Origin: a virus
Strand: one strand, 5' to 3'
DNA length: 41,389 nt
IMG/VR virus record: IMGVR_UViG_3300044257_000012
The translations under genes were made by a program, and so were the position numbers. The notes beneath the pieces are model-generated. The model ran no database searches. It was not told where the DNA came from and worked only from the letters and a program-made list of their open reading frames with translations. This document shows positions 2,973 through 26,263 of the stretch, piece by piece; the stretch's first letter is position 1, and every line of letters starts with the position of its first letter.

Positions 2973-3013
2973 TTGCACGTAACCATCGAGGGGCGACGAA
3001 AGAGGTACGAATC

Positions 3014-3196
3014 ATGGCCAGCACTCGCACCGCCGAAGACGTGCGTCACGAGGTCATCACCTCGCTTGCCGGATCGGAGTCCGAGTTCAACGTCGACGGG
3101 ATCGTCGACGCCATCGTGAGCAACTACGGTCTCGACTCGATCGACGACATCCCCAGCAACGCCTACTGGACCATCGTCGAGAACAACGCGCTGTGA
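3014..3196 (+). CDS. hypothetical small acidic protein
   Basis: 60-aa ORF, first gene after the promoter. GAGG 9 nt upstream of the ATG. Confidence 0.6.
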   Translation: MASTRTAEDVRHEVITSLAGSESEFNVDGIVDAIVSNYGLDSIDDIPSNAYWTIVENNAL

Positions 3197-3438
3197 CCGG
3201 GCCTGGATCGAATGAAGGACTCGGCGAAGCGTTGCACTGGGCGCGCGACTCGTATCTCGTGAATGCGGATCGCGACTTCCTCCTACTCGAAGCGGGAAAG
3301 CGATCGAGAGACGTCACGAGTCTGATCGAACTCCGATCATGGATCGGGAACAAGCGCCGCACGGCCAGGGACGGACGCGCACTCGCGAAACGCTGGGGAG
3401 TCACCCTCCCCAGCGAATCAAATCAGGAGCACCGATGA
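3193..3438 (+). CDS. hypothetical protein
   Basis: 81-aa ORF. GTGA start/stop overlap with the upstream gene. Confidence 0.55.
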   Translation: MTGPGSNEGLGEALHWARDSYLVNADRDFLLLEAGKRSRDVTSLIELRSWIGNKRRTARDGRALAKRWGVTLPSESNQEHR

Positions 3439-3977
3439 ACAAGATCCCGACACTTTTCCGGCGTGACCCTGCCGACATGAAACGAGTCCTCCCTGAGGTC
3501 AACCCAGAATGCCAGTGGGTGATAGACGGGGAGGGTGTCGCGACTCGCAAGTATGACGGCACGTGCGTCATGTTTGACGGTGAGTACTGGTGGGCAAGGC
3601 GAGAAGTCAAGCGTGACGCGGTTCCGCCGACAAACTACGTTCCGATCTCCATCGACCTGAACACGGGCAAAACGATGGGGTGGGAACCGATCGGACAGTC
3701 GTCGTTCGCGAAGTTCCACGCGGAAGCGCTAGGGGCGTCGGATCGAAACCTCACGCCGGGCACCTTCGAGCTAATCGGCGCGAGAATCAACAAGAATCCT
3801 GAAGCGGTTCCTTCGGGGCATCGTCTGGTCCGCCATGAATACGCTGCCCTCCTTCCCGGCGCTCCACGCGACTACGATGCGCTACATGCATATCTCGCCG
3901 AATTCGACGGTGAGGGTATCGTCTGGCATCACCCGGACGGGCGCATGGCAAAACTCAAGCGGCGCGACTTCGTCTAG
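3435..3977 (+). CDS. minimal ATP-dependent nucleic-acid ligase (RNA/DNA ligase nucleotidyltransferase domain only)
   Basis: ORF 3339..3977 trimmed to ATG 3435 (AGGAG upstream, ATGA overlap). Motif I KYDGT, motif IV EGIVWH and motif V KLKRRDF. 180 aa. Confidence 0.7.
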   Translation: MNKIPTLFRRDPADMKRVLPEVNPECQWVIDGEGVATRKYDGTCVMFDGEYWWARREVKRDAVPPTNYVPISIDLNTGKTMGWEPIGQSSFAKFHAEALGASDRNLTPGTFELIGARINKNPEAVPSGHRLVRHEYAALLPGAPRDYDALHAYLAEFDGEGIVWHHPDGRMAKLKRRDFV

Positions 3978-3983
3978 TCACGC

Positions 3984-4020
3984 AAAAACGCCCCACACCG
4001 AAATGGTGCGGGGCGTTTTT
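3984..4020. terminator. bidirectional rho-independent terminator hairpin
   Basis: aaaaacgccccacacc-gaaa-tggtgcggggcgttttt. GC stem flanked by an A-run and a T-run. Confidence 0.75.
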
Positions 4021-4057
4021 GCGGTTGCCAAGAATCAGGCGCGCACTGCAAGAGTCA
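3984..4057. repeat. 74-bp direct repeat, copy 1 (terminator plus duplicated last 23 nt of the capsid gene)
   Basis: Matches 4460..4533 except for the inverted hairpin loop. Includes tcaggcgcgcactgcaagagtca, which is the capsid gene 3' end. Confidence 0.9.
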
Positions 4058-4083
4058 AGCGTGAAGAATCATGTGTGCAAGTA

Positions 4084-4112
4084 TTGCGCATCGATGAATC
4101 AGGGAGTAGTAT
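4084..4112 (+). promoter_or_regulatory. sigma70-like promoter TTGCGC-N17-TAGTAT
   Basis: -35 at 4084..4089 and -10 at 4107..4112. The surrounding ~60 nt is homologous to 2911..2975. Confidence 0.5.
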
Positions 4113-4151
4113 TTGACTTGCAAGTGAGAGAACGAACGAGGGGCGAACGAA

Positions 4152-4454
4152 ATGTCGAACGAGTTGCAAGAGATTCGCAAGAGCATGACCGGCAAAATGT
4201 ATTGTGCGCTCACGACAGGCAGCCACGTAGGGTATACATGCATTGGCCAGAGGGTCACGCTGAACGCCCTGAGGCGCCGCGGCTTGATCGCGGATGACAA
4301 CCGATGGACTCGGCTTGGATGGGCCATGGTCTTGTGGATCGTCGCCACTGAGCCGGGGTGGAATCCCGCATACTTCAAACTCCCCCAGGACGTTCACACC
4401 GAAGCCCTAGCGGAAGACGCTTCGCGGCGAGACCAGCGCAACTCCGCATCCTGA
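4152..4454 (+). CDS. hypothetical protein (single-gene cassette)
   Basis: 100-aa ORF. CGAGGGGCGA lies 5 nt upstream of the ATG. Has its own promoter and terminator. Confidence 0.6.
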   Translation: MSNELQEIRKSMTGKMYCALTTGSHVGYTCIGQRVTLNALRRRGLIADDNRWTRLGWAMVLWIVATEPGWNPAYFKLPQDVHTEALAEDASRRDQRNSAS

Positions 4455-4459
4455 GACAC

Positions 4460-4496
4460 AAAAACGCCCCGCACCATTTCGGCGTGGGGCGTTTTT
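4460..4496. terminator. bidirectional rho-independent terminator hairpin
   Basis: aaaaacgccccgcacc-atttc-ggcgtggggcgttttt. Lies between the convergent genes 4152..4454 and the capsid gene. Confidence 0.75.
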
Positions 4497-4533
4497 GCGG
4501 TTGCCAAGAATCAGGCGCGCACTGCAAGAGTCA
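4460..4533. repeat. 74-bp direct repeat, copy 2 (overlaps the true capsid gene 3' end)
   Basis: See 3984..4057. Confidence 0.9.
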
Positions 4534-5866
4534 CGAACGGGCTCAAAGTCGGTCCGCCGTTCTTGGGCGTGATCGCCGACGGAATCCACGGACGTCCGTC
4601 GTTGCGTGCGATGACGCGGATGGTGGTCTGGTCGGAGGTGAACTTGACGTGCGGGGACGTCTCCACGCTCGCAGTCTCCCGCTGACCGATCAGGTAGAAG
4701 CCGAGGTCCACCAGCGACAGATCCCCCTGGTCGCCGAGCACGCCCGGAGTCTTCTCGCTCATGATGACCGGCCGGCCAAGCAGGGTGAGCTGCGGCGCAC
4801 CGTGGCCGTCAGTGATCCACACGGCGCTGCCACCGGTGCCGACGGACAGCGCCATCGTCGCCAGCTCGACGAACGTATCCGGCGACGCGAGCCACACGGC
4901 GCGGCCAATCGACGACGGTAGCATCCGCGCGTACATCTTCAGGGCGTTCTGCCAGACGATCGTGTCCGCGGCCTGCCCGGTCTCCTTCGTCTGCACGATC
5001 AGCGCCGGGTTCTGCGTGGCGATCGCGCCCAGCGGCTCACCCGCGCCGGTACCGGTGAGGAAGTCAGAGTCCGCGTAGAACGCCATCGCTTTCGGCAGGG
5101 CCGTCATCAGGAACGCAGTGAGCGCACCCCCGCCATCCTTGATCAGTTCGTTGGTCACGTACGCGAGAGCGGTCTGCTTGGTCGGGGACAGCTTGACCCG
5201 ACCGAACTTGGCCTCACTCTCGACGAACTCCTCCCCCTCCTCGGTGCGGTAGACGACCACACCGCCGTAGACCGAAGAGGCGTTCGAGGTGGCGTCCACC
5301 GTCGGGAAGGTAAGCGTCGCGCTCGACATCGGGATGACCGTGGCGCGCGGGAGGACGACCGACTCTTCCAGCTCCAGCATGTGAAGTTCCTGCCGGAACT
5401 CCTCCGGAACGAGGAAGCCGCCCGAACTCGGGATCTTCTCGCTGTAAGCGTTGACCAGCGCGATGTTCTCGGCCTGCTCCGCCGACGGATTGCGGTTGCC
5501 GTGCCACATCGCCTGAACAAATTCGCCGATGTCGCCGAACTTGCCGTTCAGCGCAGCGCCGGGAGCGCGACTCGGCTTGCCCTTCGCCTTGTGCCCGGCC
5601 AGCAGCGCACCGTTCAGCAGGGCCGCGCCGCTCTTGTCGGCCTTCAGGCCCTGCTCACGGAACATGTCGACGATGACGGACTGAGTGGCCTCTTTGATCT
5701 GGCCGGTCATGTCGGCGCGCTCGGCGTTCTGAGCGTCGACGTAGGCGGTAAGGCTCTCCTTGAAGGAGCCGTCGGCCAGAGCCGCGCCACCCTTCTCGGG
5801 AGTGTCCAGCGTCTCGAGGTACGAATTGAACTCGGCCACGGTCTCCGGGAGTGCGCGAGTGCTCAC
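4511..5866 (-). CDS. major capsid protein, HK97 fold
   Basis: ORF 4511..6019 trimmed to GTG 5866 (GTGA overlap with the protease stop, AAGAGG upstream). 451 aa with typical Phage_capsid-like sequence, following the portal and protease. Confidence 0.9.
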   Translation of the reverse strand: MSTRALPETVAEFNSYLETLDTPEKGGAALADGSFKESLTAYVDAQNAERADMTGQIKEATQSVIVDMFREQGLKADKSGAALLNGALLAGHKAKGKPSRAPGAALNGKFGDIGEFVQAMWHGNRNPSAEQAENIALVNAYSEKIPSSGGFLVPEEFRQELHMLELEESVVLPRATVIPMSSATLTFPTVDATSNASSVYGGVVVYRTEEGEEFVESEAKFGRVKLSPTKQTALAYVTNELIKDGGGALTAFLMTALPKAMAFYADSDFLTGTGAGEPLGAIATQNPALIVQTKETGQAADTIVWQNALKMYARMLPSSIGRAVWLASPDTFVELATMALSVGTGGSAVWITDGHGAPQLTLLGRPVIMSEKTPGVLGDQGDLSLVDLGFYLIGQRETASVETSPHVKFTSDQTTIRVIARNDGRPWIPSAITPKNGGPTLSPFVTLAVRA

Positions 5867-6708
5867 GCGAGTACCTCTTTCATGATGTTGACGAGAGCCG
5901 CGCGATCCCAGTTGACGGCGGTTTCTTTCTGCTCGTGCTGCTCGTGCTCTTGCGATTCCCTCGCGAGGGCTCGCGCGCTGACGCCCGCAGCAACCTCTTG
6001 CGGGAGGATGTTCACCCAACCGGCGAGGTAGTCGTCGATCGACTCGGCCGACTCGTCATCGTCCCCGACGATCTCATCGACGAGTCCGGCATCGAGTGCG
6101 GTCTGGCCGGTATACCAGACACCATCCTCACCGTTCTCCAGCATCTTCGCGCGCCAGAACTCGACATCCTCGCCCGCTTTCTCGGCGTAGATGTCCGCGA
6201 TGTTCGCCGACGCCAAGTCCAGCAACTCGACCTTGCGCATCAGGGAGTCGCGGTTGCCGAACACGCCGGTCATCGCATCGTGGATCATGAACATTGCATT
6301 GCGCGATGTCTTGACCGTGTCGCACGCGAGCATGACGAACGATGCCGCCGAAGCAGCGATGCCGTCGACGTACCCCGTCGTCAGGCCGGAATGCCGGGAG
6401 ATGAGTGAGTGGATGGCAACACCATCGAACGCGTCGCCACCGCCGGAGTTGATCCGCACGTCCAGCGGACCGGGGCCGACCTCGTGCAGGATGCGCGCCA
6501 CGTCGCTGGCCGAGATGCCGTCCTCAAACCAGCTACCTCCGCCGATCCGTCCGTAGATCATCAGCTCAGCCGGCGCTTCAGCAGTCACCCGCGCGCGCAT
6601 CGCCAGTCCGGGGACATCGGCCAGAGGACGAACGGCGGGTTGGTTGGACATCGCGTACGCCACGACAGGATCAAGTGCGCTGAGAATGCCGCGCCTACGT
6701 TTGTTCAT
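5863..6708 (-). CDS. prohead (capsid maturation) protease, ClpP/S14-like
   Basis: 281 aa. INSGGGD, GIAASAASF (Ser) and MFMIHDA (His) motifs. Acidic C-terminal tail. Lies between portal and capsid. Confidence 0.85.
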   Translation of the reverse strand: MNKRRRGILSALDPVVAYAMSNQPAVRPLADVPGLAMRARVTAEAPAELMIYGRIGGGSWFEDGISASDVARILHEVGPGPLDVRINSGGGDAFDGVAIHSLISRHSGLTTGYVDGIAASAASFVMLACDTVKTSRNAMFMIHDAMTGVFGNRDSLMRKVELLDLASANIADIYAEKAGEDVEFWRAKMLENGEDGVWYTGQTALDAGLVDEIVGDDDESAESIDDYLAGWVNILPQEVAAGVSARALARESQEHEQHEQKETAVNWDRAALVNIMKEVLA

Positions 6709-6945: not shown

Positions 6946-7161
6946 TCAGAACGCCACCGAAACGAGAGGCTTGCCCGAGCTGCGGGCATCGCGCTCACTG
7001 GCATAGACGGTGACGCTACGGGCCAGCACGTCGGACGAGTCGGGGCCGATGTGCACCACGGCCTCTTTTCCGGCCACCTGAACGGCGCGAGCGGCAATGG
7101 TATGCGCGCCATTATCGACGAACACCCGGACGTCATCTCCGACTTTCAGTGCGGCCATCAT
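6946..7161 (-). CDS. hypothetical small protein
   Basis: 71-aa ORF. ATGA overlap with the portal stop. Confidence 0.5.
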   Translation of the reverse strand: MMAALKVGDDVRVFVDNGAHTIAARAVQVAGKEAVVHIGPDSSDVLARSVTVYASERDARSSGKPLVSVAF

Positions 7162-8381
7162 TCATCCTCTTCAGCGGCGGGAATCGCGCGGGGAATCGCG
7201 GGGGCGGGTTCCTTCACGGTCATCGGGGGGAGACCGCATACCTCAGCGGCTTCGAGCGGATCGACACGCGCACCGACCAGCGTGGCGAACGCCGTCGTGC
7301 GCGCGGCGAGATCAAGGCGCTCCGATTCGGCATCGGCGGGGATCGGGGAGCGGTAGTTGTACTCGTGGCTCTTCCAGAGCGGACCGAACATCGGCAGTAG
7401 TCGCGAATTCAGGACACCGCGGATGTCTTCCAATCGCGGGATGGTGAGTGTCTGCGCCATGAGCGTCATCGACGCTTCCGCGCTCGCTCGGTTGACGTCG
7501 TCCACGTCGCCGATGCCGAACTTCGGGAAGCCGAACGTGTCGAACACGGCCTGCCGAGTGAGGCCGCGGCTCTCGACGAATTGCATGTCTTTCTGCGTGT
7601 ACGACAGGGGGGTGAAATCACCCTCTTCGAGCACGGCGACGCGGCCGGCATTCTGTACGCCCTGGTGCTGGAAGCGCCAACGCTCGACGAGTTCTTCGAA
7701 CTCGGTCTCGCTCATGCGCCGGCCGACCCTGATGATGCCACCCGGATTGGCGGAGTTGCGATACAGCGATGCTTGCCAGGTGGACTGTGCGTCACTCTGC
7801 GCCAGGTCGGACGCCAGCGCGCCGATCGGCGACTCGCCGCGGAACGGATCGGACGGCGATGGCAGGAACGACGTGATCACGTCGTCGACGTCGAGCGGGA
7901 TCTCTTCACCGTCAGGTGAGCGGTAGACGTATCCGGCGATGAACTTGGTGGTGCTCGGCACCACGAACATGCGGTCGGGGCGGACCGGCCAGATCTCGAC
8001 GGGCATCCCGCCGATCTTGACCAGCACCCACCAAAATTCGCCGCACAGGTCCTTGTGCTGCTGAGATGCGTTGACGAGTAGCGCGCGGCTCATGAAGTCG
8101 TTCGGCTTGCGCCAGACTTTCAGCGGCGCGGCGTTCTCCGCGCGCACCCCTTCCAGTGGAACGGGTGCGTCGCCAGCCGTCGTCGGCTTGGCGCACAGAT
8201 CCCACTCGACCATCGACGTCATACGCGCGAGCTTTGTCACCACGCCGTACAGAGTGGCCGTGGCCGTGAGGGAGTCGAGCTCGCTCGATCGATCCCGCCG
8301 ACTGAACAGCCCTGTTCCGCTGTAGAGTGGGCGTCCGGCCTGGGACCGAGGGATGAGCGGGACCGGGGTGTCGTTCACCAT
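7158..8381 (-). CDS. portal protein (HK97-family-like)
   Basis: ORF 7158..8618 trimmed to ATG 8381. 407 aa, acidic C-terminus, positioned upstream of protease and capsid. Confidence 0.85.
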   Translation of the reverse strand: MVNDTPVPLIPRSQAGRPLYSGTGLFSRRDRSSELDSLTATATLYGVVTKLARMTSMVEWDLCAKPTTAGDAPVPLEGVRAENAAPLKVWRKPNDFMSRALLVNASQQHKDLCGEFWWVLVKIGGMPVEIWPVRPDRMFVVPSTTKFIAGYVYRSPDGEEIPLDVDDVITSFLPSPSDPFRGESPIGALASDLAQSDAQSTWQASLYRNSANPGGIIRVGRRMSETEFEELVERWRFQHQGVQNAGRVAVLEEGDFTPLSYTQKDMQFVESRGLTRQAVFDTFGFPKFGIGDVDDVNRASAEASMTLMAQTLTIPRLEDIRGVLNSRLLPMFGPLWKSHEYNYRSPIPADAESERLDLAARTTAFATLVGARVDPLEAAEVCGLPPMTVKEPAPAIPRAIPAAEEDE

Positions 8382-8413
8382 CCCGCCGAGAAGCGAGCGA
8401 AGACTCAACGCGT

Positions 8414-8457
8414 CACCCCCGGCATCATGATCGCGATGATACAGCACAAAACCACAC
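8414..8457. repeat. 44-bp direct repeat, copy 1
   Basis: cacccccggcatcatgatcgcgatgatacagcacaaaaccacac is identical at 9502..9545. Confidence 0.95.
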
Positions 8458-8481
8458 CTCGCGCTGAGGTGTGGTTTTGTG
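8445..8481 (-). terminator. rho-independent terminator (16-bp stem)
   Basis: cacaaaaccacacctc-gcgct-gaggtgtggttttgtg immediately after the stop of gene 8488..9129. Confidence 0.7.
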
Positions 8482-8487
8482 TGCGAC

Positions 8488-9129
8488 TCAGGAGATGTCG
8501 AAACGCTCCTGAGTCGCCTCGACGGCGAGACTCCACACCTCGCACCATCCTTCTGCGCGAGCCAGGTCTTGCAGATCTCCCCAGGACGCCCCATCGCGCA
8601 GCGCGGAGAGAACCCCATTCACCTGATCTTCGTAATCGTCTAGGTAGTCGCCGACGATCCACGCAATGAGAGGGGATGAGTATTCAGCCTTGCCGTACTC
8701 CGCCGACGCCGCAGCGCGCACCTTGCGGTACTCCGTCCACGCCGCGTCGCACACCTTGTCACACTCCGCCGACGCCGCAGCGCGCACCTTGCGGTACTCC
8801 GTCCACGCCGCGGCGCACACCTTGTCGTTCTCCGCCAACGCCGCAGCGCGCACCTTGCGGTACTCCGTCCACGCCGCGTCGCACACCTTGTCGCACTCCG
8901 CCGACGCCGCAGCGCGCACCTTGCGGTACTCCGTCCACGCCGCGTCGCGCACCTTGTTGTACTCCGCCAACGTCGCAGCGCACACCTTGTCGTACTCCGC
9001 CAACGCCGCGTCGCGCACCTTGTCGTACTCCGCCAACGCCGCGTCGCACACCTTGCCGTACTCCGCCAACGCCACGCGCTGCTCTATGGGTAGCGGAAGT
9101 GTGATCTTAATTCGCCCCTCATTGGTCAT
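8488..9129 (-). CDS. tandem 11-residue-repeat protein
   Basis: 213 aa. About 12 consecutive A-x-x-E-Y-x-K-V-x-x-A units followed by a unique acidic C-terminal domain. Has its own promoter and terminator. Confidence 0.75.
   Translation of the reverse strand: MTNEGRIKITLPLPIEQRVALAEYGKVCDAALAEYDKVRDAALAEYDKVCAATLAEYNKVRDAAWTEYRKVRAAASAECDKVCDAAWTEYRKVRAAALAENDKVCAAAWTEYRKVRAAASAECDKVCDAAWTEYRKVRAAASAEYGKAEYSSPLIAWIVGDYLDDYEDQVNGVLSALRDGASWGDLQDLARAEGWCEVWSLAVEATQERFDIS
8680..9072. repeat. tandem repeat, 33-bp unit x about 12 (66/132-bp higher order)
   Basis: Periodic ccgccgacgccgcagcgcgcaccttgcggtactccgtccacgccgc.... All frames on both strands are open across it. Confidence 0.9.
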
Positions 9130-13333: not shown

Positions 13334-14710
13334 TCAGTTGATAAATCTCACGCGCATCCTAGGCTGGAGATCGAGGTACGCGCCGACGTAGCGCGCCGTA
13401 TCCATGCTGTGGTCGTTAACCTTCAGCGGCTTATCCTTCACGGGCTTACCGTCCATCGACGGTTCCCAGACGTAGCCCTCAACCTCCTCGCCCATCCACG
13501 TCGGCCGGCCAGACTCGCCGAGCTCGGTGTCACGCGAGACCAGGGCATCGCGACACAGGAGCGCGCGCGGCAGGCCGTCAGGCTGCACCACGAGGCGCGC
13601 GGACAGCGCCTGGATACCCTCGCTCACGTTCTTGTTGGCGGCGAGCGTCCCGATCTCCGCGTGCCGCTCGAACGTCGCCCGGTCCTCGGCATCGTGGTCA
13701 CACACCACGGCCATCGGGCGCGGGTACTTCCACACGCCGTCAGCCGTGCGCACCACGGCCAGGATGTCGCGCACGTGATCCTCCACCAGGCGCTTGGTCC
13801 GGTAGATCTCCTTCTCCAGATACATGCGCCCATCGGGATCGATCGCCCACATCTGCCACACGAAAGGGTTCGTGTACCCGAAGTCGATCCCCCACACCCG
13901 CGGCCAGTCACGAGGGAGAATCTTGCGATCGATGAGGTGAACGTCGGACTGCCACCCCTCGTAGATCATGCCCTCAGCCGCGGCCCACCGTCCGTACCGC
14001 AAACGCTCACGCCGCACACCCGTCAGCCGATCCAGCCGTGCGATGTAGTCACGCCCGTACGACGTCACCACACCATCGGCACCGAAGATCCGCGGGTTGT
14101 CCTCGTGGCGCGACAGGAGCATCTTCGTCAGGCCGTCGTCGCATCTCTTCTTGAGCCAGTGCGACGGCTGCTGCGGGTTACAGTCGGCCAGCAACTGCTG
14201 GAACGACGTCCGCCCGTTACGTAGCCGACTGTTGACCTTCTCCCAGTCATCGAGCGTGAAGTCGGTCCCCTCTTGCAGGAAGGCGACGTCGTACTCCGCG
14301 CTCATCACCTTGTCGGCGTTGTCCATCCCGCCGACGACGATCACAGAGCCGTTCTTATAGATGTACTGCGCCGGCTTCTCCCCCGACCCCCCGTGCCACT
14401 TCATGTGCCCCTGAGCGATCGACTCCGCGGCCACCTGCTCCCGCAGCGTCACCAGGCCTGTCGACGTGAGCGATTTGTGCGTCTTGCGCAGCACGAGCGC
14501 ACGCATCCCCCTAAGGTGATGCTCGTGATCCTTTGTGCACCCCTTTTCGCACATTCCATTCATCAGGCACATCAAATGAATCTTGTACAGCGCCCCATAG
14601 CTTTTGCCGGTTCCGGCGGCACCGACTGTCAGAACCTCAGGGGAGCGGTCGGCCAGAAGGGTGCGAGCGGCCCCCCTGGTCTCGATCCGCCTGACGATCG
14701 GCTCAGGCAC
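13334..14710 (-). CDS. terL: terminase large subunit
   Basis: Walker A GAAGTGKS, Walker B DVAFLQE, nuclease motifs GIDFG / CDHD / DHSMDTARY. The track start is TTG 14719; GTG 14710 is preferred because GGGAG lies 10 nt upstream. Confidence 0.9.
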   Translation of the reverse strand: MPEPIVRRIETRGAARTLLADRSPEVLTVGAAGTGKSYGALYKIHLMCLMNGMCEKGCTKDHEHHLRGMRALVLRKTHKSLTSTGLVTLREQVAAESIAQGHMKWHGGSGEKPAQYIYKNGSVIVVGGMDNADKVMSAEYDVAFLQEGTDFTLDDWEKVNSRLRNGRTSFQQLLADCNPQQPSHWLKKRCDDGLTKMLLSRHEDNPRIFGADGVVTSYGRDYIARLDRLTGVRRERLRYGRWAAAEGMIYEGWQSDVHLIDRKILPRDWPRVWGIDFGYTNPFVWQMWAIDPDGRMYLEKEIYRTKRLVEDHVRDILAVVRTADGVWKYPRPMAVVCDHDAEDRATFERHAEIGTLAANKNVSEGIQALSARLVVQPDGLPRALLCRDALVSRDTELGESGRPTWMGEEVEGYVWEPSMDGKPVKDKPLKVNDHSMDTARYVGAYLDLQPRMRVRFIN

Positions 14711-14906
14711 AGGACACAAGCTCCCATGCTCGAATGAGGCGAACGGCGAGAATCAGCGTCTCGTCCGAGCTCATTGGTCGGTCCGGCGCTCTCATGCGCA
14801 CCGACCTCGACGTGCGCATAACGGTGATCGACGCGTCCGCCGGAATGCCTCGCGCGTGCAGCAATCCGGGCACACGCTCATCCTCCGCCCAATCCTGATC
14901 ACTCAC
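14703..14906 (-). CDS. hypothetical protein between the terminase subunits
   Basis: 67-aa ORF. GTGA overlap with the upstream stop. Its 3' end overlaps the terL start. Confidence 0.4.
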   Translation of the reverse strand: MSDQDWAEDERVPGLLHARGIPADASITVMRTSRSVRMRAPDRPMSSDETLILAVRLIRAWELVSCA

Positions 14907-17592: not shown

Positions 17593-19974
17593 TTACGCCG
17601 AGTAGGTTCCTTCAGACACCTTCAAGACGCCCGCCTCGCACCCCTGGCCGAGTGCCTCGTCAAGGCACCCTCGGTGCTTCGTGTAGATCCAATCCCTGAT
17701 CTGCCGCTTGCTGCGCCCCTCTCCGAAGGTGCGCAGCTTTCCCGCGATCAACTCGACATGCTTGGCGATGCAAGCTTGTGCCTCTGTCTGGCGTCCGCGC
17801 TCATTCGCTGCGGCTTCCGCCTCTCGGCGCTTGAGGCGAGCGATGCTCTCCCGCTCCTGCTCCCTGGCCGTAGCCTGCCGGATACGCGTCCGCACGGCCC
17901 CCGAGACTGCGAGAACCTGCTCCGCGAGCCCCCAGTCCCCCTCTGTGGCGTTCATCCGCCCGTCCAGCACCGCGAGCAAGCAGGAGAGCTTCACGAGCAG
18001 GAGGGGCTTGTGGGAGTCGAGAGGCTCCACGGTCAGCGTGCCGCGTTGCTTGGCAAGCCTCTCGGCACGAAGCCGGACTTTGATGCTGTCGGCGATGGTC
18101 ATCTTCGGCAGTTTCGTGACCTCGGATGCGGCCTGACCTAGCAGTGAGCCCTTCCAGGACTCGGCGAACGCGCCAGGGAGTTCCAACCGGGCCATCACTT
18201 TGTCCTCAACATCGTCGGGGATCGTGGCGTCTACGGCCGACAGCCACAGGAACCGCTGAACGGTGCCGAGTTCGACCTGTTCCGCCGTGAACAGGCGGCC
18301 GGCGATGGCGGGCTGAAAGCCGATGGTCATGCCGAGTGAGTAGGTTCCCGCGGGAATGATGCGCGTGGTGTCGGCGCGCCCGTTCTGCTGGCCGAGCGCT
18401 TCCCCTGACCAGGCGGAGCGCAGTGCTTCGCTGACGGTGCTGCCCTGACGCTCCAGCATCCGCACGAGTTCGGCACCCTCATCCTTGTGCAGCAGGACGT
18501 TGTCATACACCTTGTCGCGAACCTTCTTGGTCTTCCCGGTCTCTTCGTCCTCCCGTTCGACCATGCCCATGAACGACTCGGCGATGCCCTCCCCTGACCC
18601 GAGCGGCAGTGCGTGAGGGTTCCAACGCTCGTTCTCCGGCATCACTGCGTCCACCACCCTGAGGCCGGACGACTTCCCGCCCCCGGACGGAGCTACGAGG
18701 GACACGATCAGGTTCAGCGAGGTTGTGTCTCCGCCGATCCCGGTGTCGGGTCCGCACTTCGGCGGAAGGGCTGCGGCGATCCGGGCGAGTACGCCCCCGA
18801 ATACCGCATCGGCGGACGACAGGCGCTCATGCGCCACGTCCCTGATCAGCCGAAGATTCGGGCGTGATTCCCAGAACTCGGCAGGAAGGTTCGACGGCGC
18901 GATCTCGATCGCTACGTCCGCCGCAGACACGAACGCCGCGCGCCACTGCTCCGGCCCGCGCATCGCTCGTCTGGCCGACGCGATCGTGTCTGCGGCCCTC
19001 CAGGTCATCCCGTCGTACGCCGTGGCGCTGAGCGCGTCCTGAAGCACCGCGTCGGCTTGGTCCGTACTCCAGAATTCGTCCCCGAAGTGCGCGAGCGCGC
19101 ACGAGGCCTCGTTGAGCCGGACGTTGATCTCTCCGTCTCTGGCCGACCTCAACGTCAGCAGCGCGGGGGCCGTGAACGCTCGCGCCTGCTCGATCGTGAA
19201 CGAGCGCGTCTCTCCGGCCCATCCCTGCATCGAGGGAGTGAACAGCACGATCCCTCCACCCGACGCGGGAGCAGGCGCGGAGATGGCGACAGGCGCGACG
19301 AGTCGGCCGACCACGTCGGCCAGGGCGAACCGCGCACCGACGGCAGCCTCCCCCGGCCACCATCGCGCCACCACGGACTCAGGCATCCCCGGCTTGCGGT
19401 TGGTGGTGCCCGGCATCCGGTAGACGCGCGCCAGGTCTGACGTGTTGTCGACCTTCCAACCGTGCACTTTCGCGGCGTCGATGATGGCGCGATGCACACG
19501 CCGCACGTCGTCCCGCGTCTGGCCGATCACGTCGGGGTCGGTGAGCGGGATCGGTTCGGCCAGTCGCCACACCGGATACACCCCACCCCCGGATTCGATC
19601 CATGTCGTCGGGTCTGGCAGTCCGGCCTCACTGAGCACCTGCTCGTACTGCGCTCGCGTCTCGGGGTAGTTGAGTGCCTTGTGCCCCGGACCTTTCAGGT
19701 CGAGGTCGGCCATGATCGCGGGCAGCGAAACGGAGTCGGCGACGGTGCCGCGCCTCAGGGCGGTGTCGTTCATCGTCGTCAGTCGGTGATAGACGCCGGA
19801 CGCTCCACATTCTCCGTCGAGAATGATCGCGTATCGCGCGGCCTCGTCGAGGTCGGTGAACCGCCTGCCGCGCCAGTCCGCGGGCGTTCCGATCCACACG
19901 TTCCCGTCGAACTTCTCTCCGTAAAGCCACTTCAGCCAGGACGATGCCTGTTGTAGACGTGCGCTTTCATCCAT
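17593..19974 (-). CDS. bifunctional primase-polymerase (AEP) with C-terminal DUF3987/P-loop helicase-like domain
   Basis: 793 aa. AEP motifs ADLDLK, SGGGVYPVW and RMPGTTNRK. P-loop APSGGGKSSG. Confidence 0.85.
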   Translation of the reverse strand: MDESARLQQASSWLKWLYGEKFDGNVWIGTPADWRGRRFTDLDEAARYAIILDGECGASGVYHRLTTMNDTALRRGTVADSVSLPAIMADLDLKGPGHKALNYPETRAQYEQVLSEAGLPDPTTWIESGGGVYPVWRLAEPIPLTDPDVIGQTRDDVRRVHRAIIDAAKVHGWKVDNTSDLARVYRMPGTTNRKPGMPESVVARWWPGEAAVGARFALADVVGRLVAPVAISAPAPASGGGIVLFTPSMQGWAGETRSFTIEQARAFTAPALLTLRSARDGEINVRLNEASCALAHFGDEFWSTDQADAVLQDALSATAYDGMTWRAADTIASARRAMRGPEQWRAAFVSAADVAIEIAPSNLPAEFWESRPNLRLIRDVAHERLSSADAVFGGVLARIAAALPPKCGPDTGIGGDTTSLNLIVSLVAPSGGGKSSGLRVVDAVMPENERWNPHALPLGSGEGIAESFMGMVEREDEETGKTKKVRDKVYDNVLLHKDEGAELVRMLERQGSTVSEALRSAWSGEALGQQNGRADTTRIIPAGTYSLGMTIGFQPAIAGRLFTAEQVELGTVQRFLWLSAVDATIPDDVEDKVMARLELPGAFAESWKGSLLGQAASEVTKLPKMTIADSIKVRLRAERLAKQRGTLTVEPLDSHKPLLLVKLSCLLAVLDGRMNATEGDWGLAEQVLAVSGAVRTRIRQATAREQERESIARLKRREAEAAANERGRQTEAQACIAKHVELIAGKLRTFGEGRSKRQIRDWIYTKHRGCLDEALGQGCEAGVLKVSEGTYSA

Positions 19975-22779: not shown

Positions 22780-23192
22780 GCGACGATGCGAAAGAGGTCA
22801 CGCTCAGCCTGGAAGTGGCGCGGCACCTGTTCGATCTCGCGACCGACGACATCCGAGTGCTGCGCAAATTTGCCATCGCGATCGGAGTCGATCCGCTGGG
22901 CGCAACACCGTTCGAATTCATTCGCGACTTCCCGCACGCGTTCCAGCCGTTCGACGTTGACAAGGCGCGTTGCCGCAAGCCGTCGAACTGGTCGTACTCC
23001 AGCCCTCTCGGCCTGTGGGAAACCGACGACGAGGTGATCGCGCGGGCCACACGCATCGGTGCGGACCTGACGCAGTGCATCGCGGGCGGACCGTTTGGTT
23101 CTCGTAAATGCCGGCGCGACGCGTCCGACCCGATTCACCAGGCCGGCGCGCCGGAACCGACGAGTGATGGACTGGAGATGGTGGACGAATGA
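22776..23192 (+). CDS. hypothetical protein
   Basis: ORF trimmed to ATG 22776 (ATGA overlap). 138 aa. Confidence 0.6.
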   Translation: MSDDAKEVTLSLEVARHLFDLATDDIRVLRKFAIAIGVDPLGATPFEFIRDFPHAFQPFDVDKARCRKPSNWSYSSPLGLWETDDEVIARATRIGADLTQCIAGGPFGSRKCRRDASDPIHQAGAPEPTSDGLEMVDE

Positions 23193-23359
23193 GCAAGACG
23201 CCAGAACGGGCGACGTATGAGATTCGGCGTACTCCGTACGGGAAGGCGCGATGGACGTACACAGTCTTCCGTGACGGGATCGAGCTTCCGCTCGCGTTCT
23301 ACTCACGCAAGAAGGATGCGGAAGCACGCATCCGAGAGGACATTGCCAACATCGCGTAG
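23189..23359 (+). CDS. hypothetical 56-aa protein (below the ORF-track cut-off)
   Basis: ATGA overlap. MSKTPERATYEIRRTPYGKARW.... Confidence 0.5.
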   Translation: MSKTPERATYEIRRTPYGKARWTYTVFRDGIELPLAFYSRKKDAEARIREDIANIA

Positions 23360-23394
23360 CTGAAACACAAATCGAGCGTGACAGGCTACCAAGC

Positions 23395-23424
23395 TTGTCG
23401 CGCTCGATTTGTTTGCGCTATAAT
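23395..23424 (+). promoter_or_regulatory. promoter TTGTCG-N18-TATAAT
   Basis: Consensus -10 box 31 nt upstream of GTG 23456. Confidence 0.6.
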
Positions 23425-23455
23425 CAGAACAACGTAAATCAACGAGGGGCGAATC

Positions 23456-26263
23456 GTGAGTGAGGCTTTCCAGCTCTACGACTATCAGCAGGAGGCCATC
23501 TCTGATCTCTTCTCTCGTTGGGATGCTGGCGCGACGCGCGTGCCGACGGTGGCTGCCACTGGACTCGGCAAGACTGAGATCTTCATTGCGGTGATCGATC
23601 GCTGGCTCGCGCTCAATCCGAGCAAGCGTGTGCTCGTCGTCGCGCACACCAACGAACTGATCGATCAGGCTGCAAAGAAATCTCGACTGCGCATGCCGCA
23701 TCGCCGCATCGGCATCGTCAAGGGCGCGCTGAATCAATCCACCGCCGACGTCATCATCTCGTCACGCCAGACACTCGCGAGTGTCAAGCGCAGAAATCAG
23801 ATCAAGCGTGTGGGCCTAATGATCGTCGACGAATGCTTCCCTGCTGGAACGCTGGTCGGGGGCGGGCCTATCGAGACGCTAAAGCCTGGCGACATGGTGC
23901 AGTCGTGGGATGAGGCGTCCGGTGAGGTTGTAGCGCGCCCCGTGGTCGCCGTCATGCGCAAGCGTCCACAAGCCGTGGTTCGCGTCTCCCTGGCCGGCGG
24001 GCAGGTGTTCGCCTGCACCCCGAACCATCCCATCCTCACGAGTCGGGGATGGTGTCCCGCCGGAATGCTTGCGCGTGGTGAGTTGGTGGTATCGTTTACT
24101 CATGACGGACAAACGAGTAAAACAGCCGGGGATCGGATCAGGGGGCGCAATGAGGCTTGCGGCGGAAGCGCGGAGAGTCGCGCGCACGACTCCGCCGTGC
24201 ACGTGGTGCGGAAACCTCGTGGACATGCCGAACGACACCATTCACAGGTATCGAACATGGCAGAAGACCGGACGGGCGTTCGACACCGACCAGTGCCGTG
24301 CGCGATGGGTGAGCCTGGATTCGTCGAATCGGATGGCTCGGACCAACAGGGTGCACGCTTCGGCGCGCATGATGGCGAACAACCCGATGGCTCGGGAAGA
24401 GACTCGCGAGAAAATGAAAGCGACGCTCTTGGCGATCGGTCATCAGCCGCGAATTCGTGGCGGGAATGGAACTCCACCACCCCAAGCTCAGCGCCTATTG
24501 GCGGAGTTCTTGGGGTGGCCCATGGAAGTAGTCGTTCCTCCCGGCGACGGGGATCGCCCCTATCACTACAAGTTGGATATAGCGCATCCGGCAATGAAGG
24601 TGTGCGTGGAGGTGGACGGGGGGTCCCACTACGCGCCGGCGCGCCGAGACTCGGACCGTCGGAGGGACGAACGCCTAGCGCGTATCGGGTGGTTGACGTT
24701 CAGGTTCTCGAATCAGGAAGCGACGGAACGTACGGCGGAGTGTGCCCAGACGGTTTTGTCTACAACATTGAAGTGGCGGGCACGCATACCTACCTGATTG
24801 GGGATGGCGTGGTGGCTCACAATTGTCATCACGCGCATTCAAAAAATACCTACGGGAAGGTGCTGAAACACTACGGGGCGTTTGACGCGTGCGAGCACTC
24901 CGACGATCCCGACTCTGTCGACGTGGCCGCATGCAACCCGTGCGTATCAACCGACAGGCACACGCCACCACGAATCAAAGTCGCTGGATTCACCGCAACG
25001 CTCGTTCGCGGCGACAAGGCGAAGCTGAGCACAGTGTGGGAGGACTGTACGTATTCGAGGGACATCCTCTTCGGCATTCGTCATGGCTACCTGCTCGACG
25101 TGAAGGGAGAGCGGATCATCGTCGATGATCTCAACTTGAAGAACGTCAAACAGGCGGGTGGGGACTTCAGCGAGTCCGCGCTCGCCGAGGAATTGGAGCG
25201 ATCGTTCGCGATCGAGACGATCGCCGAGGAGTACGCACGTCTCGCGCACGATCGCAAGGGCATCGCGTTCTGGCCACTCGTCGCCACAGCCGAGCACGCC
25301 GCTCAGGTGTTCAACGACGCGGGCATCCCGAGCGCGGCAGTGTCCGGCCAGACCGACAGGCACGAGCGTGCGAGCACGCTGGCAGACCTTGCCGCCGGGC
25401 GGATTCAGGTCGTGCACAACGCGATGGTGCTAACGGAAGGGTTCGACGACCCGTCCATCGAATGCATCGTGATCGGACGCCCGACGAGATCCCCCGTCCT
25501 CTTTCCGCAGATGGTCGGCCGCGGACTGCGCAAGCGTCACGACATCCCCATCGAACAGCAGCGTCCGTGCCTACTGTTCGTGGTCAGCGGAGCTGCCGAG
25601 ACGATGGACTTGCGAGGCATGATCGACCTCTCGCCTGAGTCCAACCTTCAGGGCGCGTACGACGAGAACCCGGACGCCACTCTCGGAGAGCTGGAAGAGT
25701 GGGTCGAGCAGCAGATCGAGGAGGAGCTTGACGCGCAGCGTTCGGGAGCGTCGTACGAATTCGAGAGTGAGCAGTACGCCGGCCCCGTCACCACGGCCAC
25801 ATTCGACCCTCTCGGCAGGGATAAGGCGTGGGGGAAGACGGACGGAGGTACCTACTATCTGCGTGCATCGCGGTTCGGCAAGGGCGACGCGTTCATCTTC
25901 TTGACTCCCGCTCTCTCGGGTCTGGCCGACGCATACGACATCGCCGCCTGCTCCACGAATACCGGCTTCGATCAGTTCGTCGACGCCGCGCCCGAGTGGG
26001 TGTCCGGCTTCCCCGAGCACGTGAACATGCCACTGGAGCGCGCGCTGCTGTTCAGCGAGGAGATCGCCGGGGGTGCGTACAACTCACACAAGAGCCCGTG
26101 GCACAGCCGGCCGCCGGGCAAGCACCTGAAAATCAAGGCGTGGCGCTTGGGCGTCGACGTCGGCCAGATGACGCACGGTGAATTGCAAGAGGCCGTCGAC
26201 GCGCGCATCGCCAACGCGCGAATCGATCCGCTCGTTGCTACCGTACGATCAAGTGTGCAATAA
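23456..26263 (+). CDS. SF2 (DExH) DNA helicase precursor containing an intein
   Basis: Motif I ATGLGKT, motif II MIVDE|...|CHH split by the insertion, motif III GFTAT, motif VI QMVGRGLRK. 935 codons, 605 without the intein. Confidence 0.85.
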   Translation: MSEAFQLYDYQQEAISDLFSRWDAGATRVPTVAATGLGKTEIFIAVIDRWLALNPSKRVLVVAHTNELIDQAAKKSRLRMPHRRIGIVKGALNQSTADVIISSRQTLASVKRRNQIKRVGLMIVDECFPAGTLVGGGPIETLKPGDMVQSWDEASGEVVARPVVAVMRKRPQAVVRVSLAGGQVFACTPNHPILTSRGWCPAGMLARGELVVSFTHDGQTSKTAGDRIRGRNEACGGSAESRAHDSAVHVVRKPRGHAERHHSQVSNMAEDRTGVRHRPVPCAMGEPGFVESDGSDQQGARFGAHDGEQPDGSGRDSRENESDALGDRSSAANSWREWNSTTPSSAPIGGVLGVAHGSSRSSRRRGSPLSLQVGYSASGNEGVRGGGRGVPLRAGAPRLGPSEGRTPSAYRVVDVQVLESGSDGTYGGVCPDGFVYNIEVAGTHTYLIGDGVVAHNCHHAHSKNTYGKVLKHYGAFDACEHSDDPDSVDVAACNPCVSTDRHTPPRIKVAGFTATLVRGDKAKLSTVWEDCTYSRDILFGIRHGYLLDVKGERIIVDDLNLKNVKQAGGDFSESALAEELERSFAIETIAEEYARLAHDRKGIAFWPLVATAEHAAQVFNDAGIPSAAVSGQTDRHERASTLADLAAGRIQVVHNAMVLTEGFDDPSIECIVIGRPTRSPVLFPQMVGRGLRKRHDIPIEQQRPCLLFVVSGAAETMDLRGMIDLSPESNLQGAYDENPDATLGELEEWVEQQIEEELDAQRSGASYEFESEQYAGPVTTATFDPLGRDKAWGKTDGGTYYLRASRFGKGDAFIFLTPALSGLADAYDIAACSTNTGFDQFVDAAPEWVSGFPEHVNMPLERALLFSEEIAGGAYNSHKSPWHSRPPGKHLKIKAWRLGVDVGQMTHGELQEAVDARIANARIDPLVATVRSSVQ
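23834..24823 (+). mobile_element. intein (330 codons) inserted in helicase motif II
   Basis: Begins CFPAGTLV (block A), has TPNHPILT (block B) and VYNIEVAGTHTYLIGDGVVAHN (blocks F/G), and is followed by +1 Cys. Excision restores DECHH. Confidence 0.8.
24150..24797 (+). CDS. nested +1-frame endonuclease gene (Zn-ribbon + NUMOD3-like + DUF559/Vsr-like PD-(D/E)xK domain)
   Basis: ORF 24069..24797. ATG 24150 is preceded by AGGGGGCGCA. Contains CTWCGN..C and YHYKLDIAHPAMKVCVEVDGGSHY..RRDERLARIGWLTFRF. The frame-0 translation of the same DNA is a featureless Arg/Gly/Ser-rich stretch. Confidence 0.7.
   Translation: MRLAAEARRVARTTPPCTWCGNLVDMPNDTIHRYRTWQKTGRAFDTDQCRARWVSLDSSNRMARTNRVHASARMMANNPMAREETREKMKATLLAIGHQPRIRGGNGTPPPQAQRLLAEFLGWPMEVVVPPGDGDRPYHYKLDIAHPAMKVCVEVDGGSHYAPARRDSDRRRDERLARIGWLTFRFSNQEATERTAECAQTVLSTTLKWRARIPT

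Follow-up and report, generated by a model that had tools for sequence, protein, structure and literature searches.

Out-of-frame endonucleases within inteins and related inserts have been described in several settings. Gosselin, Arsenault & Gogarten (bioRxiv 10.1101/2025.01.02.630785) reported actinophage inteins, located in genes for DNA polymerase, minor capsid, terminase and thymidylate synthase, whose endonucleases are of the LAGLIDADG type (antisense), VSR-like (antisense) or Endo VII-like (frame 3), and proposed that free-standing homing endonuclease genes (HEGs) invade inteins. In the cyanobacterial dnaX intein, Phillips, DeSimone & Gogarten (bioRxiv 10.64898/2026.09.14.751524) described an out-of-frame LAGLIDADG endonuclease, first noted by Gorbalenya 1998, as cited there. 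The fractured genes of Dassa et al. 2009 (PMC2677866) consist of split inteins flanking a free-standing Vsr-like or GIY-YIG endonuclease gene, and Arsenault et al. 2025 (PMC11855218) found an HNH endonuclease encoded out of frame in phage methylase inserts (the ShiLan domain). Here we describe a helicase gene in the IMG/VR virus record IMGVR_UViG_3300044257_000012, the whole 41,389 nucleotides (nt) of which are referred to as the window. This gene very probably carries a dual-coding intein, within which a separately translated homing-type endonuclease gene is nested in the +1 frame of the same strand.

With the actinophage inteins (bioRxiv 10.1101/2025.01.02.630785), the helicase family has in common a contiguous intein, an unstructured host-frame middle and a full endonuclease open reading frame (ORF) in another frame. 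For both, the proposed origin is a free-standing HEG entering a mini-intein, both are missed by gene callers, and a Vsr-like type with an HHpred link to the structure 3R3P is also present in the actinophage set. However, the Vsr-like enzymes in that set are antisense and its sole sense-strand case is Endo VII-like and in frame 3, whereas the helicase family is sense-strand and +1 and extends beyond actinophages to Vibrio and Pseudomonas phages, with at least 405 IMG/VR loci. The dnaX intein (bioRxiv 10.64898/2026.09.14.751524) likewise has overlapping splicing and endonuclease ORFs, a linker that is disordered in the host frame, an endonuclease frame under purifying selection and a proposed secondary invasion of a mini-intein, but differs in its cellular host, its LAGLIDADG nuclease and its '+2 ORF'. 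Like the fractured genes, which are mainly phage DNA-metabolism genes, as here, the helicase family has a nuclease of the Vsr-like superfamily, encoded between the N and C parts of the intein by a gene of its own that has a separate start and stop (PMC2677866). The nuclease 3' end overlaps the downstream intein part by 6-69 bp in fractured genes and by ~133 nt here, and while fractured genes have two host ORFs and rely on trans-splicing, frame 0 is continuous here. ShiLan inserts (PMC11855218) similarly conceal an endonuclease ORF out of frame without interrupting the host frame, and the question of internal initiation also arises for them, but they contain no splicing domain, are thought to be retained as a loop, and encode an HNH nuclease in frame 3. 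A helicase host or a sense-strand +1 Vsr-like enzyme appears in none of these four reports on related arrangements, and full-text literature searches returned no relevant match. The general principle is already published; the helicase host combined with a sense-strand Vsr-like nuclease is new, and the family is very large. In agreement with the preliminary description of this sequence, we infer that the arrangement is intermediate between a canonical intein and a fractured gene.

The helicase gene and the parts of its intein in frame 0 are listed below, with an arrow marking the splice junctions in this list and in the text and pLDDT (predicted local distance difference test) denoting the score of the AlphaFold2 (AF2) model.

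23456..26263, plus strand: helicase-intein precursor ORF, frame 0, 935 amino acids (aa), GTG start, no internal stop
23456..23833, plus strand: N-extein, 126 aa, ending ...MIVDE, the first half of motif II (DE↓CH)
23834..24823, plus strand: intein, 330 aa, with Cys1, block B T62-x-x-H65 and C-terminal H329-N330
23834..24103, plus strand: N-terminal splicing (Hint) region, intein residues 1-90, pLDDT >90, beta-rich
24107..24658, plus strand: frame-0 linker, intein residues 92-275, Gly/Ser/Arg-rich, no family match
24665..24823, plus strand: C-terminal splicing (Hint) region, intein residues 278-330, with blocks F and G (...VYNIEVAGTHTYLIGDGVVAHN), pLDDT >83
24824..26263, plus strand: C-extein, starting CHHA, the second half of motif II; it also includes Helicase_C and a C-terminal extension

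According to Pfam, the precursor ORF is a DExH-type helicase of superfamily 2 (SF2), with a ResIII/DEAD N-terminal part and a Helicase_C C-terminal part. The insert sits inside helicase motif II, between DE and CH, and its Hint parts are in the helicase frame with the junctions that had been read from the sequence by eye, ...IVDE↓CFPAGT and ...GVVAHN↓CHHA, where the first C-extein residue is the +1 Cys. Intein-less helicases with a contiguous motif II (DECH or DEAH) are found at the IMG/VR loci L064 and L071 and in many phages. The intein scores above the curated cut-offs for Pfam PT-HINT (32.1 compared to 27.7) and NCBIfam intein_Cterm (22.1 compared to 15.6), and a profile of 47 family inteins matches mini-inteins and bacterial intein-like (BIL) domains in the Protein Data Bank (PDB) at 4e-20 to 1e-11, through separate N (~2-100) and C (~282-306) stretches. 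The structures matched include 2LWY, Spl DnaX, Mtu RecA, Npu/Ssp DnaB and gp41-1. Within these 47 inteins T62 and H65 do not vary, C1 hardly varies, and H329 and N330 vary little if at all. Residues 1-90 and 278-330 come out confident and all beta in the AF2 model, even though the input alignment was shallow. Superposition of this model on the inteins of Mtu RecA, Ssp DnaB and Npu DnaB gives a root-mean-square deviation of 1.5-2 Å and a probability of 1.0. Together, profiles and models confirm a class-1 intein with a predicted Hint fold built from the N and C parts, which would be expected to splice.

The segment between these parts is of a different character. Residues 92-275 are modeled with a pLDDT of 33-42 and no secondary structure, and the frame-0 middle (24098-24700) has no Pfam match at E<=1, in line with its earlier portrayal as featureless. 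Gly, Ser and Arg together make up 43% of the linker, whose hydrophilicity clearly exceeds that of the Hint parts and that of the +1 protein; it is stop-free, yet its amino-acid sequence is not conserved. The insert as modeled is in effect a mini-intein, with Hint parts of ~90 aa and ~53 aa and a predicted disordered linker of ~185 residues. As no endonuclease domain lies in frame with the window intein, it is not a canonical bifunctional intein, and as frame 0 is uninterrupted both in the window and in 77/77 nested relatives, the host gene is not broken as it is for split inteins; cis-splicing would be expected from this continuity. A query with the frame-0 intein recovered only 10 proteins from a 5.8-billion-protein set, because the word filter was saturated by the low complexity of the linker and a precursor is seldom predicted as a single gene. 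Among the relatives, the inteins of L014, L025 and L038 form a subgroup ending ...AVSN↓CHH, with Ser replacing the penultimate His, and the intein at L081:2595-3515 ends ...VHN↓SQRI within a 1552-aa host ORF and may occupy a different host gene or site.

Open from 23934 to 24797, the +1 frame contains the following features.

24102..24797, plus strand: nested endonuclease ORF, +1 frame, 231 aa from ATG 24102 or 215 aa from ATG 24150, with TGA at 24795-24797
24140..24145, plus strand: AGGGGG, a Shine-Dalgarno (SD)-like tract 4 nt upstream of ATG 24150
24198..24296, plus strand: zinc-ribbon-like module, C33, C36 ... D61, C65
24483..24776, plus strand: DUF559/Vsr-like (EDxHD-type) nuclease domain
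24576, 24609, 24615, 24627, 24654: invariant nuclease residues D159, E170, D172, H176 and D185, respectively
24665..24797, plus strand: zone of ~44 codons (~133 nt) in which both frames are protein-constrained, the nuclease C-terminus lying over the C-terminal Hint region

Both ORFs are located where the preliminary description placed them, frame 0 being free of stops and the +1 frame stopping at 24797, and its identification of a DUF559/Vsr-like nuclease in the +1 frame holds. The +1 product matches Pfam DUF559 (PF04480) at 2.8e-9, with 36.9-37.3 bits compared to a gathering cut-off of 20.6, while PHROGs and NCBIfam gave weak nuclease matches and nothing more. In the 5.8-billion-protein set, 113 homologues of the +1 protein were found (1e-14 to 1e-103, all 120-280 aa), every one of which carries DUF559/MTES_1575 and none of which (0/113) has a Hint domain. 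The AF2 model of the nested protein has a pLDDT of 89.3, and its top Foldseek match is the catalytic domain of I-Bth0305I (3R3P; probability 1.0, template modeling score normalized to the target 0.71, E 5e-3), followed by the DUF559 structure 3HRL (probability 1.0). I-Bth0305I is an EDxHD homing endonuclease with NUMOD/helix-turn-helix repeats, its gene lying in a recA group I intron (Taylor et al. 2011, PMC3239194; PDB 3R3P), and is the prototype of the Vsr-like 'EDxHD' family of fractured genes and group I introns (PMC2677866, PMC3239194), consistent with the kinship to fractured-gene enzymes that had been suggested. At the sequence level, the nested nuclease is closer to DUF559 than to I-Bth0305I, since its profile matches 3HRL at 1e-10 and 3R3P only marginally (E=0.096). 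The spacing in the nested family, E-x-D-x3-H-x8-D (E170, D172, H176, D185), is compatible with a composite E-D-x-H-D motif. Based on the Pfam threshold the nested protein is a DUF559 member, and its predicted structure indicates that it is related in fold to the EDxHD homing endonucleases.

I-Bth0305I and the nested protein are also alike in domain order, with N-terminal DNA binding and a C-terminal Vsr-like nuclease (PMC3239194), and may be alike in their conserved acidic and His catalytic residues. In contrast with I-Bth0305I, the N-terminal part of the nested protein consists of a zinc ribbon and long helices, and neither NUMOD3 nor any other NUMOD family has a Pfam match in it at E<=1, so that the NUMOD3-like segment proposed earlier could not be confirmed. 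The family alignment shows a CxxC...CxxxC zinc ribbon followed by the segment MARTNR..AS.RM..NNPM....R.KM..TL, an invariant GGNG, and a nuclease core of the form YK.D...(V/I)E.DG.SH......D..(K/R).....L...GW...RF.N. The N-terminal zinc ribbon is duplicated (two CxxC...C..C units) at L003:2342-3088 (Vibrio phage CP-T1) and L004:2333-3112 (Vibrio phage 1.088.O), with a correspondingly longer intein linker, and a duplicated module is also present in the homologues P0019, P0055 and P0095.

The nested ORF has the boundaries of a separate gene. An ATG is present 2-20 codons before the first CxxC in 67/73 loci, where the intein has run for 80-100 codons and its N-terminal Hint part ends, and the nested frame stops 4-18 codons short of the end of the intein. 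The boundaries of free-standing homologues fall at the corresponding residues. In 42% of distinct loci a strict SD core (AGGA/GGAG/GAGG) is found at -16..-6 of the nested start, compared to 10% for other ATGs in the same host ORFs (p=9e-11 for the enrichment).

Dual coding leaves a clear mark on the sequence. The preliminary description had counted by hand about 32 T-ending codons in the nested ORF, without any juxtaposition that would create a frame-0 stop, and anticipated several stops by chance. The count is exact: there are 32 T-ending codons and 44 codons that precede a codon starting with AA, AG or GA, and the two never coincide. Synonymous shuffles of the +1 ORF yield a mean of 6.1 frame-0 stops compared to the 0 observed, and the chance of obtaining no stop is 0.0003 with codons permuted inside the ORF and 0.001 with codons drawn from extein usage. 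The ORFs of 63 distinct nested relatives each have 0 frame-0 stops, where the expected median is 8, supporting the earlier view that selection keeps frame 0 open, and for GenBank relatives at a G+C content of 43-50%, shuffles predict 11-19 frame-0 stops, with 0 stops reached in none of 3000 trials. In three free-standing homologues the same relative frame contains 9, 21 and 29 stops, where shuffles predict 10.9, 19.4 and 29.2, indicating that the open frame 0 is imposed by nesting and not by the protein sequence.

Substitution patterns, counted as mismatches by frame-0 codon position after aligning the window gene with three metagenome contigs that carry the closest homologues (L006-L008, 64-77% identity), differ along the gene. 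Position 3 has the most mismatches in the exteins and in the N-terminal Hint part (e.g., 0.28/0.25/0.47), while over 24150-24736 the peak moves to frame-0 position 1, which is position 3 of the +1 frame (0.42/0.19/0.16 for L006, with L007 and L008 similar). The nuclease C-terminus overlaps the C-terminal intein blocks as had been claimed (24665..24797, ~44 codons), and within this zone 24737-24797 is nearly invariant, with 5/61 mismatches to L006. The last 15 nuclease residues, TVLSTT.KW.ARTPT and the stop, are conserved because they overprint intein block F (VYNIEV..HTY). The invariant nuclease Tyr-Lys forces Leu-Gln in frame 0, where L245 is nearly invariant and Q246 invariant, and the Tyr codon must be TAC, since TAT followed by AA would give a frame-0 TAA. 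On the evidence of these sequence comparisons, three things are selected: the +1 nuclease protein, the frame-0 Hint parts, and the mere absence of stops in the linker.

At shorter range, the IMG/VR contig IMGVR_UViG_3300044760_000039 (L009), which is 99% identical to the window, differs by three substitutions over 24150-24797, two of which are synonymous in +1 and non-synonymous in frame 0, with one the reverse. The intein has diverged at 8/990 nt and the exteins at 45/1818, a difference that could reflect dual coding constraint or recent transfer. Upstream of ~21200 the ungapped register between the window and this contig is lost, from indels or a different gene.

The same layout is found throughout the relatives examined. 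The helicase gene has no megablast match among GenBank phages, so the comparison was made through protein-level searches. A tblastn search of GenBank phages with the +1 protein returned 40 records at 38-48% identity, and every match sits within a gene annotated as helicase or hypothetical. In five of these phages (L001-L005: Corynebacterium phi673, Pseudomonas MR14, Vibrio CP-T1, Vibrio 1.088.O and Vibrio 104E43.1), the match is offset by +1 (mod 3) from the annotated coding sequence in 5/5, that coding sequence is open throughout, and the +1 open stretch runs for 215-263 codons. Nesting in +1 was also found in 3/3 of the metagenome contigs L006-L008. A pattern scan of IMG/VR identified at least 405 loci encoding a relative of the nuclease, and the layout was tallied for the best 80: 77 have a long host ORF spanning a +1 nuclease and three have a free-standing nuclease, and at no locus is the nuclease in frame, shifted to +2 or placed within a broken host gene. 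The nested nuclease ORF is intact in 76/77 loci; at L050:2965-3039 the nuclease frame runs into a stop after ~25 codons, within a host frame that remains open (834 aa), possibly a nuclease in decay. A scan of genome contigs with a narrow nuclease alignment found two contigs from metagenome-assembled genomes (MAGs; Acidimicrobiaceae and Elusimicrobia), both +1 nested. The junctions read xxDE↓CF(P/V)AGT ... (H/S)N↓CHH almost everywhere, and the +1 layout persists down to ~35% protein identity. In the contigs L006-L008 and the contig of P0002, gene callers give a 'DUF559' and a 'Helicase_C' gene overlapping by 58 nt and lose the N-terminal part of the helicase, in place of which an antisense ORF is sometimes called at such split-called metagenome loci. 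GenBank phage records show the opposite, with the nuclease hidden within a 'putative helicase'.

The insertion site occurs in four states. The DE↓CH site is empty in many phage helicases, and nested inteins are by far the commonest state with the nuclease as query (77/80 best loci). At two loci a free-standing nuclease homologue overlaps the start of an intein-less helicase whose motif II is uninterrupted (DECH/DEAH): at L064 the nuclease spans 2977-3663 and the helicase 3581-5269, overlapping by ~80 nt, and at L071 the nuclease spans 2995-3636 and the helicase 3602-5263, overlapping by ~35 nt. This layout resembles a free-standing HEG beside its target gene and may represent the state before intein invasion. 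The third free-standing homologue, L057:2968-3594, is part of a replication module; a DnaB-like ORF is located downstream of it, and it does not adjoin an SF2 helicase. Finally, mini-inteins of 128-180 aa without a nuclease ORF are present at the same DE↓CHH site (match regions ~1501-2058) in L095, L096, L099-L103, L105, L106, L108, L112, L115, L118 and L130; a single-sequence query had returned close relatives only, and an alignment of the N and C parts was then used. The mini-inteins of L103 and L105 keep Arg/Ser/Gly-rich frame-0 remnants like the overprinted linker ('...NSSRSGR...' in L105), suggesting that the nuclease gene was lost by deletion. Such a set of four states is what one would expect of a homing cycle, and also if a mini-intein acquired a free-standing HEG.

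Based on the data presented above, we propose that frame-0 translation of the helicase mRNA would run through the whole insert, after which the Hint parts would fold together around the floppy linker, splice out and restore DECH. Ribosomes starting internally at the nested ATG, behind its own SD sequence, would make the free endonuclease, which would cut intein-less helicase alleles of co-infecting phages at the predicted target ...ATCGTCGACGAA↓TGTCATCAC..., and repair would copy intein and nuclease together into the cut allele. Protein splicing, internal initiation, cleavage specificity and homing are thus all predictions drawn from the arrangement.

Several observations weigh against this reading. 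For the N-terminal Hint part, the NCBIfam intein_Nterm score of 23.4 is below the curated cut-off of 24.5, and Pfam Intein_splicing is also below its cut-off. The zinc ribbon described earlier is present as a module, but in the window its third ligand position (24282-24284) is Asp where the family has a nearly invariant Cys, as is also the case in P0003, and this change could weaken the DNA-binding module. The earlier claim of an own start with an SD sequence at 24150 stands insofar as the nested ORF has a separate start and stop, but the position is ambiguous on sequence grounds: the window SD tract AGGGGG is a non-canonical core, and while ATG 24102 is an 'LLMT' start conserved in L006-L008, ATG 24150 is not conserved in L006. 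Within 23300-25000 there is no promoter-like site ahead of the nested ORF inside the gene, the only one being at 23395-23424, and internal initiation on the helicase mRNA would be the most economical explanation for production of the nuclease. With respect to homing, the pairwise median identity is 46% for the nuclease and 31% for the extein with only moderate correlation (r=0.52), and no pair has near-identical inteins in divergent exteins by pairwise identity, so that direct evidence for recent transfer is weak.

Alternative explanations must be weighed against the same data. That the +1 offset is an artefact, two compensating indels having displaced the in-frame endonuclease of a canonical bifunctional intein, is a concern that a single window by itself could not dispel, and the preliminary description had pointed to raw reads or close relatives as the check. 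In the independently sequenced L001-L005, L006-L008, 77/80 IMG/VR loci and two MAG contigs the offset is the same, 0/80 relatives have the nuclease in frame, 0/113 database homologues have a Hint domain, and the offset is kept to ~35% protein identity; we regard an artefact as having practically no chance of being correct. The outcomes that the preliminary description would have taken as refuting its reading did not occur among the relatives, which show neither an in-frame nuclease (0/80) nor frame-0 stops (0/63 distinct nested ORFs), and the +1 product does have significant profile matches. It is nearly as hard to credit that ribosomes shift into +1 after the N-terminal Hint part and return before block F, thereby producing a canonical bifunctional intein. 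Programmed frameshifting is known in phages, and the nuclease is placed exactly as are the in-frame endonuclease domains of canonical inteins, but two efficient shifts in opposite directions would be needed, the ~44-codon overlap of nuclease and C-terminal Hint region cannot be read in one pass, and selection against frame-0 linker stops would be unnecessary if ribosomes left frame 0. Moreover, the nested ORF has its own conserved ATG, enriched SD cores and a stop 4-18 codons before the intein end, and free-standing homologues begin and end at equivalent residues.

Two further possibilities concern what the nuclease does, as opposed to how it is encoded. The +1 ORF might be a decaying relic in an intein that is functionally a mini-intein, with frame 0 open only for the sake of the helicase. 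The truncated nuclease of L050, the remnants in mini-inteins that lack the homing endonuclease, which show that decay happens, and the Cys-to-Asp change at the zinc ligand of the window are what such a relic would predict. However, 76/77 nested loci have an intact ORF, the presumed catalytic D/E/D/H/D residues never vary, the window included, substitutions concentrate at the +1 wobble position (two of the three relative to L009 being synonymous in +1), conservation is higher for the nuclease than for the extein beside it (median identity 46% compared to 31%), and SD cores are enriched before the nested start, making decay improbable. Slightly more plausible, while still unlikely, is an expressed DUF559 nuclease with a role other than homing (replication or recombination, phage exclusion, or a regulator), its position in the intein being incidental. 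Domains of the DUF559/Vsr-like kind are found in many contexts other than homing, recent horizontal transfers are not evident, and the arrangement is ancient and stable, which could mean a benefit to the phage. Against this, the best structural match is a bona fide homing endonuclease, the domains follow the order seen in the EDxHD homing family, nearly all homologues occur within the same intein or directly beside the same helicase gene, and the patchy occupancy of the site (empty, mini-intein, full intein) is a signature of the homing cycle.

The dozens of independent loci, together with natural negative controls, constitute unusually clean evidence of a HEG living inside an intein as an overlapping gene, support the model in which a free-standing endonuclease invades a mini-intein that came first, and link contiguous inteins to the fractured-gene arrangement through the same nuclease superfamily. 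The nested state also persists over very long evolutionary times and across distant phage groups: the DE↓CH partnership has diversified to ~35% identity across phages of Actinomycetota, Gammaproteobacteria and others, with no conversion to an in-frame or split form in the loci examined. Whether +1 nesting is an ancient and selectively stable end state, not a fleeting intermediate, and the family the largest and oldest of overlapping-gene inteins, is a more tentative matter, to which we give somewhat less than even credence. On that reading the family would also provide a natural system, in culturable phages such as Vibrio CP-T1 and Corynebacterium phi673, for testing directly whether bifunctional inteins arose with the splicing domain first and the endonuclease later. 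For annotation, the consequence is that callers either swallow the nuclease in a 'putative helicase' or split the helicase and lose its N-terminal part. The natural mini-inteins tolerating linkers of ~180-250 residues may in addition interest protein engineers.

As for the surroundings of the helicase gene, the window (1-41389) resembles most of a tailed-phage genome, with no tRNA genes found in it, and contains the following further features.

4511-6019, minus strand: capsid gene
7158-8618, minus strand: portal gene
13334-14719, minus strand: terminase large subunit gene
17593-19974, minus strand: candidate DUF3987-like primase/helicase
23189-23359: small ORF upstream of the helicase gene
23367-23412: inverted repeat, acaaatcgagcg ... 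cgctcgatttgt, between the small ORF and the helicase gene
23395..23424, plus strand: promoter-like site TTGTCG-18-TATAAT upstream of the helicase gene, a consensus match only

The inverted repeat overlaps the promoter-like site and may be a terminator or an operator.

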